Under the pieces are notes generated by a model. It was not told the DNA's origin and did not search any database. It worked only from the letters and a program-made list of their open reading frames with translations. A stretch of 64,000 nucleotides of DNA from Macrostomum lignano (taxonomy: Eukaryota). The position numbers were made by a program, and so were the translations under genes. The stretch spans positions 1-64,000 of the forward strand of contig NIVC01000889.1 of the NCBI GenBank assembly GCA_002269645.1, read 5' to 3'. Shown piece after piece: positions 33,701 to 36,700 of this stretch. Numbering within the stretch: position 1 is the first letter of the stretch; every line of letters begins with the position of its first letter.

Positions 33701-36700
33701 TCGCAAATCAATGAACAGATAGCTATGCGGTTTGTTGTCAGTGGCGTCCTCGTAGGCACGAACCAAGAATTTACTGCCCCGACTGAGCATTTGCTGACTC
33801 AAGTGTTGAACGGCAGATCGGTCTCGCACACTCCTCATGAGACAAATATAACTAGCTGATAAACTCCGAGTTCGCGCCTCTGGATCCGACCGATTAAATA
33901 AATTTTGGCAAAGGTACACACACGTTAAGGGTATATGATGTGCATATTTTGTGAACATGCCAGTCAAGGCTGTAGATTTAGCAACTTCGCTTTGTAAATC
34001 GTCCACTACCACGAAATCGTGCTCCTGAAGTTGGCTAACCATCGTGTCTGGAAATCCTCTAACAAAGTGAATTGGACTGTCGCCTCCGTCTAGCCAAAAC
34101 GCTCGAATACGTTGCTGTTCCGTCGCTGACAAATCGGTCCCATGACACCAAACTAGACGTTTTGGAGCCTTGTCAAACATCGCATGGCGTTCCTTCAAGA
34201 GTCGCAGGGTCCACTCGGTCTTGCCAGACATCGCCGGGCCAGCAATAATGAACGAGGAATCGTGTGCCAATTGCAAGTTGAATGTCTCCGGCGTTGCAGC
34301 AGTCATTTTAGGCACTCAGTTTCTGTTTCAAGGACATAATTTTTGATACCATCTTGGCAGTAACCTTTTCACCAAAAGGGGTGTTTGGATCTTGTGCAAT
34401 TTCACGGGCACCGGTTTCTAGAACCCGGTCTGCCTCCAAGCGTTCCTTTACCCCCTTGTGCTTCGAATAGGCCAAGTCGTGGATCAGACACAAATCATCA
34501 AGACGATTAACCCCGCGTTGTCCCTCCGATAAACGCTGGCGTAGGCGGGTTCCGGGACCACAGAAACGGTAGCCAGGTATGTGGACCTCAACAGGCAAAT
34601 GGTTGATTAACCAGTTTACTATTCCGGAACCTCGTTGTTGGTTCTGTTTTGAACTTCTACTTTTGGAATCAATTCGGGCTGATACGAGCTTAGTCTTCTT
34701 CTTCTTCTTTTCAACTAACTTTTTACCCATCCAAAATATCGGTACCAGCAAAGCAAAAGAAAAACGATAGTAGACAAGACAAAATACCCTTGCATATAGC
34801 TTTTAAGCGTGGTTATTGTGTATTTAATCTGACCCATCCAAAATATCAGTACCAGCAAAGCAAAAGAAAAAAAAATCGATAGTAGACAAGACAAAATACC
34901 CTTGGATATAGCTTTTAAGCGCGGTTATTGTGTATTTAATCTGAGGTTTCTCAAATTGTTAAAGTCTTTTTGTTGCTCTTGTTGCTCATTTAACGACCGG
35001 TGCTACCAAAGCCCATAGCTCCGCGCTTGCGGAGCTTAGGTTCAACAATCAAGCAGCACTCTCCAGGAGCCTCCTCCAGCACGACCGGAACCACCAGTGC
35101 CTGTTCCAGGATCAGCTGGGCAATGCGTTCTCCAGCCTTAAACGTGTAGTCGTCAAAGCTGTGGTTGTAAAAAATCACAGCAATCTCACCAGCGAAATCC
35201 GGGTCGATGACACCCCCACCAACATCAATGCCACGCATTGCAAGCTCAGATCGCGGTGCAATCCTTCCGTAGGTCCCGTCCGGAACGCGAATAGAGATTC
35301 CGAGCGGTACAACCACGCGGTCGTGTGCAGGAATCAACCTGTCTTCGATGACAGACAAATCGTAGCCGATGGAACCTTGGGTAAGACGCACCGGAAGCAC
35401 ACCAGTTTCCCGCAATCGTTTCACTTGCAGTACAGCCGGCAGATGATTCGTTGAATCGTTTTTCTCCGTCGTCATTGTCTCGCCACACAGTTCTGGCTTC
35501 TGATCTGTCGAATCCATTGTGGCTGAAAGTTGTGAAACAGAGGTCTCTTTGTAGTCACCACCTTCTAGCAGAGATTGTTGCTTATACCCAAAATCAAACG
35601 CTTCTTCTTCTTCAATATCGACGAATACTAATGGTTTCAATGCGTACGTATTCCACATTTTTTATGCTAAGTACCTAGCAAATCTTACTTTGCTTACACC
35701 CTAAATTCCCAAATGAGTGAAATCTCAAGTTTGACAACATTTATGCAGATAAAATAAAACGATAATATTTAATCAGAAACGTAGCTCGTATATTAGGGTT
35801 AGATCATTCTTAGTCTACAAAGTAGCAGCAAATCAATAAATTGATTAATCATCAAGACGCCAGTGACCAAAAGGTAGTGAGACCAAATCACTGGTCCAGG
35901 CTCGCTTTGTGTCGAAGTAGCCTAGTGCCTGCTTGTACTGACTCATCGAAAACACAAGCTGCTTGCGCGAGGTAATTGTTTGCATGGTTACGTAGTGCAA
36001 ACGTCGCTCGATTAGTACATGCAAAAAAACATTATGCTTCAGACTACGACCAACACTTCTGCACACTCCCTTAGATCGAGACAGCTGCCGAACTGCTCCC
36101 TCGTCATTGCAATGCAAAAAAGAGTAGTTCTTCGGACGGAGAAAAACTAATTCTAACGGCAGTCGACCACCGAACTCGTCTTTCCAGGCCAGCAATCTTC
36201 CCTTGTGAGCAAGAGAATAGAGCTCGTGGGTTGGTGGGTAGTTACTAGTATCCAAGAGCCCCTGTGCGGCCAAGTCCTTGAATAGCGTCTCGTATGGCGT
36301 CTCAAAAGCGTTGCGCATTACCAACGCCATCATTAGAGAGTCTGTATCACCTCCGAGTACGCGAGCACGTGCAAGCGATCGATGCACCTGGAATATAGAT
36401 TCAACGAGAAAACGATGAATATTTAAGGTCATCATTTGCTCTCCAACACGAACAGCTCCGGTTTACTCACCTGCACGTGTTGATAATAAAATTCGTACAC
36501 AATCGTTTTAGCAATATCCAAAATCGTTGCACCAATAATGATTGGTTTGTTAAGCACTACTCGTTGAGGAGACAGGCTGACACCAGCCAAACTCTCGGTG
36601 TATATTGTCACGCCCAAAAATTCTTCTCGGGCTATGTAGGCCTCCAACTTTTCCGCCGAAGAACACATTCTATACGACACCCGATCTCGAACGCGTTGAA

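Follow-up and report, generated by a model that had tools for sequence, protein, structure and literature searches.

A predicted spliceosomal intron in the protein-primed DNA polymerase gene of a Maverick lineage from Macrostomum lignano

Intact Mavericks are reportedly free of introns. In the accessible text of two studies, intact vertebrate Mavericks have no introns (PMC8097293, citing Kapitonov and Jurka 2006), and nematode Mavericks have intronless core genes, with introns confined to cargo genes (10.1101/2022.07.12.499685). The element described here resembles these vertebrate and nematode Mavericks/Polintons in having terminal inverted repeats (TIRs), a 6-bp target site duplication (TSD), a family B DNA polymerase of the protein-primed type (pPolB), an integrase, an ATPase, a protease and capsid genes, arranged in two modules. 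In contrast to their intronless core, its clade has a lineage-specific intron in the pPolB gene and introns in further genes. Spliceosomal introns inside integrated Maverick-like elements are shared with dinoflagellates, where, according to the available part of the report, Maverick/Polinton-like elements carry repeated introner families, mostly inserted after integration (10.1101/2025.03.18.643946). Unlike those introners, the intron considered here appears to have a single origin, has no copies outside the element, has been inherited with the replicating element over a dS above 1 and resides in an animal. A short, clade-specific spliceosomal intron in a viral family B polymerase is also described, in the accessible sections of the source, for Chlorovirus (PMC7019647), where one clade has it at a single position, with a length of 101 or 86 nt, and sister clades do not. 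Chlorovirus, however, is a lytic giant virus with an RNA-primed polymerase, and the sequence of its intron shows roughly the same conservation as the exons; the interior of the present intron, in contrast, is saturated. Finally, the third intron of the Drosophila P element is likewise the last intron of the key enzyme of a transposon, and its retention gives a truncated product. Its regulation has been demonstrated and, in the text available, needs an exonic silencer or piRNAs (PMC7776569), whereas any regulation of the present intron is hypothetical. The accessible portions of six further sources (PMC12220804, PMC11296320, PMC8502044, PMC9356565, 10.64898/2026.07.28.741278 and 10.1101/2023.08.22.554363) contain no mention of a spliceosomal intron in a pPolB. 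Likewise, a search of openly available literature listings turned up no animal Maverick described as having an inherited intron in its pPolB.

The term 'window' denotes the whole stretch of DNA analysed, 64,000 nucleotides of M. lignano contig NIVC01000889.1 (positions 1 to 64,000). The Maverick element that it contains and the main features of this element are listed in Table 1.

Table 1. Coordinates of the Maverick element and its features in the window
Feature	Position	Strand	Details
Whole Maverick element	26751..45674	.	18,924 bp; AGTAGT ends; TIRs identical over first 90 nt, similar to about 130 nt
Left 6-bp TSD	26745..26750	+	right copy at 45675-45680
Adenain-like cysteine protease	27544..28155	-	PDB 6lj9 (S273R protease), E 1.9e-6
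Double jelly-roll major capsid protein	28098..29576	-	probable ATG near 29423; no Pfam hit
Retroviral-type integrase with chromodomain	29911..31149	-	Pfam rve (PF00665) E 2.8e-6, Chromo E 9e-5, neither reaching the curated threshold
Packaging ATPase (probable)	33587..34315	-	Walker A in sequence; Pox_A32 E 0.0022, weak
PLA2-like gene	34308..34802	-	intronless in the window
dUTPase	34990..35661	-	single open frame
pPolB exon 2	35845..36387	-	motif C (DTDS), KxY, C-terminus; 180 codons plus stop
Predicted intron in pPolB	36388..36470	-	83-nt GT-AG, phase 0, 13 codons before DTDS
pPolB exon 1	36471..40283	-	open frame, first ATG 40262; endonuclease VII domain, exonuclease, motifs A and B
Deoxynucleoside kinase	40588..41292	-	single open frame
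Second predicted intron	42848..42933	-	86 nt, phase 2, inside an Arg codon; unnamed gene at about 43241-42091
Third predicted intron	44099..44173	+	75-nt GT-AG with in-frame stop; small gene 44048-44370

The element has the TIRs with AGT-type ends, 6-bp TSD, pPolB and integrase of Mavericks/Polintons. It also has their capsid module: a double jelly-roll major capsid protein, a protease, an ATPase recognized by a weak match and a putative minor capsid gene assigned by position. The major capsid assignment is based on an Atlas score of 0.98 to clusters in which 14-24% of the members carry PF21738. Intronless core genes, a described though not defining trait of Mavericks/Polintons, are not found in the window element. 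A TBP-like gene lies within 40588-41920 (Pfam TBP, E 2.6e-4) and, together with the dUTPase and the kinase, is common to the sister families; as accessory genes, all three are reportedly unusual for Mavericks. Near the right TIR (45024-45528, minus strand), two overlapping short frames show a one-base difference from three sequencing runs, so that the window copy of this accessory gene appears to carry a frameshift. The homologous sites on contigs C948 and C723 are empty, with flanks 94-98% identical and a single copy of the TSD on C948. The window insertion therefore appears to be recent, and intron-bearing elements to have moved recently. The element lies inside an intron of a host gene (25765-46133, plus strand), its core genes being antisense to that gene. 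A contig from run X9 joins the host exons; it need not stem from the window locus, because a one-base variant in it matches the element-free C723. Outside the element, the window contains a temptin/copper monooxygenase-like host gene (17978-19894, plus strand), a reverse transcriptase (5594-6661, minus strand), an exon of a host ligand-gated ion channel (57965-58729, plus strand) and many tandem arrays.

The polymerase of the element is recognized as protein-primed family B by a PF03175 match and by motifs A, B, C and KxY. The open frame at 36432-40283 (1283 codons from stop to stop) matches Pfam DNA_pol_B_2 (PF03175, E 1.7e-21) and Endonuclease_7, the endonuclease VII (HNH-type) domain falling at residues 652-690 of this frame. 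HNH fusions are described, in the accessible part of the source, for nematode and oomycete pPolB2 (10.1101/2023.08.22.554363). The C-terminal piece of the polymerase matched no solved structure. None of the database proteins retrieved (185 + 13) covers both exons at high identity, and the closest named ones (97%, 71% and 64% identity) are all labelled Macrostomum lignano. Motif B and DTDS occur within one ORF (99-106 aa) in 124 of 131 database proteins, six others being without DTDS and one without motif B. This survey is weak as evidence on introns, because proteins called from ORFs are intronless by construction. Two proteins that end near the intron site, one from a cluster of mixed lengths and the other a singleton, are uninformative.

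The upstream frame of pPolB runs into a stop 12 codons inside the insert, and DTDS sits in another frame (35845-36462). On the minus strand, from 36470 to 36388, the insert begins with GTGAGT directly after a CAG codon and ends with TTCCAG, followed by GTG, which confirms the 83-nt, phase-0 GT-AG insert of the original prediction. Near the site there are six GT..AG pairs that restore the frame, and the pair delimiting 36388-36470 is the only one that either has a GTRAG donor or measures 80-86 nt. The distance between motif B and DTDS is 386 nt in the window versus 303 nt in relatives from the same genome, an excess of 83 nt. As 386 is the sum of 303 and 83, removal of the insert restores the spacing exactly and not merely, as had been expected, to a near-canonical value. 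Codon collinearity with intronless homologues is kept both in the window and in a sister family represented by contig C2529 (386-83 = 377-74 = 303 nt). Neither 83 nor 74 is divisible by three, and retention would truncate the enzyme before DTDS in both families. The earlier claim that retention removes the catalytic aspartates holds for motif C, but the aspartate of motif A (YLDANSLY) lies upstream and would be kept. No clear branch-point consensus was seen when the intron was read by eye. As for a self-splicing group I or II intron, the 83-nt insert gave no Rfam match at E up to 1, and its fold has a z-score of -0.74.

We searched the M. lignano genome for further copies. The DNA search yielded 22 loci, one without the motif pair and 21 in which both motifs could be placed. 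Motif B and DTDS are 303 nt apart in one frame in 15 of the scorable copies and 302 nt apart in one, while the other five carry an insert (386, 386, 386, 377 and 371 nt). The inspection of related pPolBs that had been proposed thus finds the intron present in 5/21 copies and absent in 16/21. In the protein search, matches on C889, C272, C4009 and C2529 are interrupted at the junction residue; 142 of 808 candidates were scored, and the copy counts are therefore lower bounds. C2529 carries an unrelated 74-nt intron at the exact base of the window intron, and C3589, a decayed relative, has a 70-nt intron at the same site. In six more distant families the region reads through in frame (297-315 nt). 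GT-AG ends with a GTRAG donor and a YAG acceptor are found in the window, C2529 and C3589 introns. The window and C2529 elements each have TIRs, a 6-bp TSD and open frames flanking the intron on both sides. C2529 is a mosaic: its segment 17164-35936 is 96% identical to the window over 27537-34637 (the capsid/integrase module) and 64-78% identical over the replication module, a contrast that argues for module exchange between families. Its TSD is one letter off the 6-nt repeat at the intron junctions, probably by chance. C272 and C4009 contain a rearranged copy, 97-98% identical, that is without the capsid/integrase module; since a flank is common to both contigs, they probably represent one insertion. 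In this decayed copy the intron donor is altered and the polymerase has a premature stop. Viral contigs yielded one weak locus, and no intron-bearing relative was found outside the genome. Metagenome contigs yielded seven loci, six of which, at 34-37% identity, are continuous through the region in about 970 nt.

With the exons analysed apart (Nei-Gojobori method with Jukes-Cantor correction), the upstream piece of the window versus C2529 has a dN of 0.096 and a dS of 1.15 over 379 codons. The values for the downstream piece, which was started one codon early, are 0.088 and 1.19 over 179 codons, with dN/dS of about 0.07. The upstream row of C3758 was left out of this comparison, as it was spoiled by a frameshift. 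The intron interiors are no more alike than shuffled sequences (68% of 2000 shuffles score as high), and GTGAG and YAG|G are kept in both. Thus, the position of the intron has been conserved while its interior drifted freely. The trees built from the upstream piece (22 rows) and from the downstream piece (21 rows) both unite the three intron-bearing rows in one clade, placed among intronless families and outgroups, with support of 98/97 and 96/99, respectively; they do not fix the order in which the sister branches diverged. Because the outgroups are intronless, one gain would be far simpler than repeated losses. The trees thus support the view that the polymerase intron was gained once, in one branch of the Maverick clade, and the monophyly of the intron copies among intronless relatives agrees with the gain originally proposed. 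The original prediction of a spliceosomal intron in a Maverick pPolB is supported by its presence in some sister families and absence in others, by the second, unrelated intron sequence at the identical position and by the purifying selection seen in each exon. We regard the insert as very probably a true spliceosomal intron.

The same comparisons bear on two readings without an intron. According to the first, a disabling insertion or an assembly error in dead copies happens to have GT-AG ends. Three of the five insert-bearing loci (C272, C4009 and C3589) are indeed decayed. Against this, five assembled loci carry an insert at one base in two unrelated sequences, and exon 2 has remained under purifying selection since the family split (dN/dS of about 0.07). 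In addition, an independent contig from run X15 crosses the site with an unrelated 25-nt insertion as its sole gap. This reading is hardly credible. The second reading dispenses with splicing and assumes two polypeptides or a programmed frameshift across the insert. In the window, no stop interrupts the 25 codons of the exon 2 frame that lie upstream of the acceptor, and there are two in-frame ATGs inside the insert, so that exon 2 could in theory be translated separately. This is impossible in C2529, where the acceptor itself forms an in-frame stop immediately ahead of exon 2 and DTDS has no ATG before it. Moreover, the inserts have only splice signals in common and show no stable fold (z-scores of -0.74 and -1.06). 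Only splicing therefore fits both families, and we consider the absence of splicing very improbable.

Contigs from four of 24 runs (X1, X5, X9 and X15) were compared with the window; none of the 24 is on record as RNA, and the contigs have no tissue labels. The joint 36387/36471 was not found in these four runs, and the contigs crossing the site resemble the donor-altered copy. Two contigs, one from X1 (35874-39188) and one from X15 (34915-36630), cross the intron unspliced. In the X15 contig, no indel that restores the frame was seen. At the polymerase intron X9 has a bin depth of 0.7, and X9 contigs are in places closest to the window-type copy; among the pieces listed, no X5 or X9 contig spans the intron. 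The crossing contigs are tied to the C272/C4009 copy by alleles, difference counts, the 25-nt insertion (X15) and a breakpoint at 33721. In three neighbouring contigs the difference counts agree exactly with those of this copy (19 and 19, 9 and 9, 22 and 22). For the X1 contig, 51 differences were expected and 43 were counted, along with 5 gap letters, a close if not exact match. Overall, the C272/C4009 copy seems to be the source of most X1 and X5 contigs. The intron at 42848-42933 is also crossed unspliced, by X1, X5 and X15 contigs, and its sites are intact in the C272/C4009 copy, which suggests DNA, antisense RNA or nascent RNA. The X1 and X15 contigs are therefore a poor test of splicing, as they seem to derive from a donor-altered copy and also cross this intact intron unspliced.

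The polymerase gene is not the only one in this clade with a predicted intron. An intron corresponding to 42848-42933 occurs in the same codon in all five families in which the gene was found (86, 81, 90, 101 and 91 nt), with interiors unrelated between families, and is present even where pPolB is intronless. The gene was not found in the stretch examined for a sixth family (C1668). It has a weak likeness to viral ssDNA-binding proteins (Atlas score under 0.9). The small gene containing the intron at 44099-44173 was found only in the window and on C272. One X9 contig omits this intron exactly, at a depth of 5.6 and with 28 letters on the short side, in a run that is only guessed to be RNA. Together, the intron shared by five of five families and the skip in X9 argue that genes of the element can be spliced. 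The PLA2-like gene has a 77-nt phase-2 GT-AG intron on C2285 and C4976 (L084:4266-4342 and L039), in a family with an intronless pPolB. The deoxynucleoside kinase of C1668 (L081, minus strand) contains a 117-nt in-frame GT-AG insert without a stop, either an intron or a coding insertion. Up to five intron positions are thus seen in the lineage: in the polymerase, the probable ssDNA-binding gene, the PLA2 and kinase genes and the small accessory gene. These introns in further genes make the polymerase intron one of several gains in a lineage that would already have used the spliceosome.

The CAGGTG repeat at both junctions, noticed originally, is present in the window in all six letters, yet only five are common with the sister family. 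At the corresponding site, three families of intronless relatives have CAG with a G or an A after it, and a fourth has CAA; this is a proto-splice site context. The repeat is mostly splice consensus, because CAG is a conserved Gln codon and GT, YAG and G belong to the consensus, leaving about two free letters. A tandem duplication left no trace when the interior was compared with a 90-nt stretch from either flanking exon (p 0.99, 0.15, 0.53 and 0.12). A genome-wide search, which short or diverged copies could escape, gave three matches to the intron, all in copies of the same Maverick. An introner was rejected as its identity, as there are not many near-identical copies in unrelated genes. We also considered that the intron was born as a short mobile-element insertion, either an introner or a product of the Maverick integrase, a proposal about origin only and compatible with the preferred explanation. 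In the integrase version, the 6-bp duplication plus an AGT terminus would make a donor. The 6-nt direct repeat has the length of the element's TSD, and in the C2529 intron 6-7 of 13 anchored positions agree with the beginning of the TIR, a match that is suggestive at most. However, the window intron agrees at only 2-3 of 13, and seven of eight TIR comparisons are null, the remaining one (p 0.013) being dropped once the number of tests was counted. Furthermore, no such repeat occurs at the other four intron positions, and the intron is confined to three Maverick copies genome-wide. With a conserved Gln codon and splice consensus accounting for most of the repeat, an insertion origin is improbable. 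Any trace of origin has likely been erased, since dS exceeds 1. Of the original proposal of gain by duplication or insertion, the gain is supported and the mode no more than a possibility, the interior being unlike its flanks (p 0.12-0.99 in four tests) and without matches outside Maverick copies.

It had also been suggested that splicing could gate replication to particular cell types. An intron regulated like the third intron (IVS3) of the P element would be removed only in the germ line or stem cells, or retained through piRNA or chromatin. The P-element precedent itself (PMC7776569, as far as its accessible text goes), the truncation before DTDS on retention in both families, the persistence of the intron beyond a dS of 1 and the unspliced contigs over the site are consistent with such regulation. 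Those contigs, however, trace to a decayed copy, and a last intron near catalytic motifs is expected by chance when the motifs sit at the 3' end. The donors are close to consensus, and the interiors have nothing in common. The intron is also absent in 16 of 21 copies, multi-copy families included. In the 20 codons nearest the junction, synonymous sites are identical in 10/17 and 9/18 cases, no more often than at greater distance (19/36, 27/54, 14/35 and 25/46), in a test of low power that also addresses an exonic silencer near the donor. We thus see no evidence for cell-type gating, and regulation of this kind appears unlikely. The broader proposal, that the Maverick lineage keeps gaining host-type introns and that the polymerase intron is a splicing switch confining self-replication to germ or stem cells, is likewise doubtful.

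The explanation that we favour, and consider probable as a whole, is that the insert is a common spliceosomal intron of the U2 type, acquired a single time at a CAG|G proto-splice site that lies 13 codons ahead of motif C. Host Pol II would transcribe the gene in the nucleus, and splicing by the host machinery, most likely efficient and not controlled by cell type, would then yield a normal full-length pPolB, while RNA left unspliced would encode an enzyme lacking motif C. As a tolerated passenger, the intron would make replication of the lineage dependent on host splicing, and it would be one of several gains in a clade in which at least one intron is long established.

If so, the intron implies nuclear Pol II transcription and dependence of replication on the spliceosome. 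Intact Mavericks are routinely identified through ORFs without introns, and a split polymerase is taken as the mark of a dead copy; live lineages can be lost by this criterion. The locus would also represent a clean, datable intron gain in a virus-like element, at one site in one clade and absent in sister families of the same genome, the polymerase intron having been retained under selection over a divergence that exceeds one substitution per synonymous site. The intron also gives easy access, by RT-PCR, to the question of whether Maverick activity is under splicing control. Should the splicing switch be real after all, sister families with and without the intron in the same genome would constitute a natural experiment.
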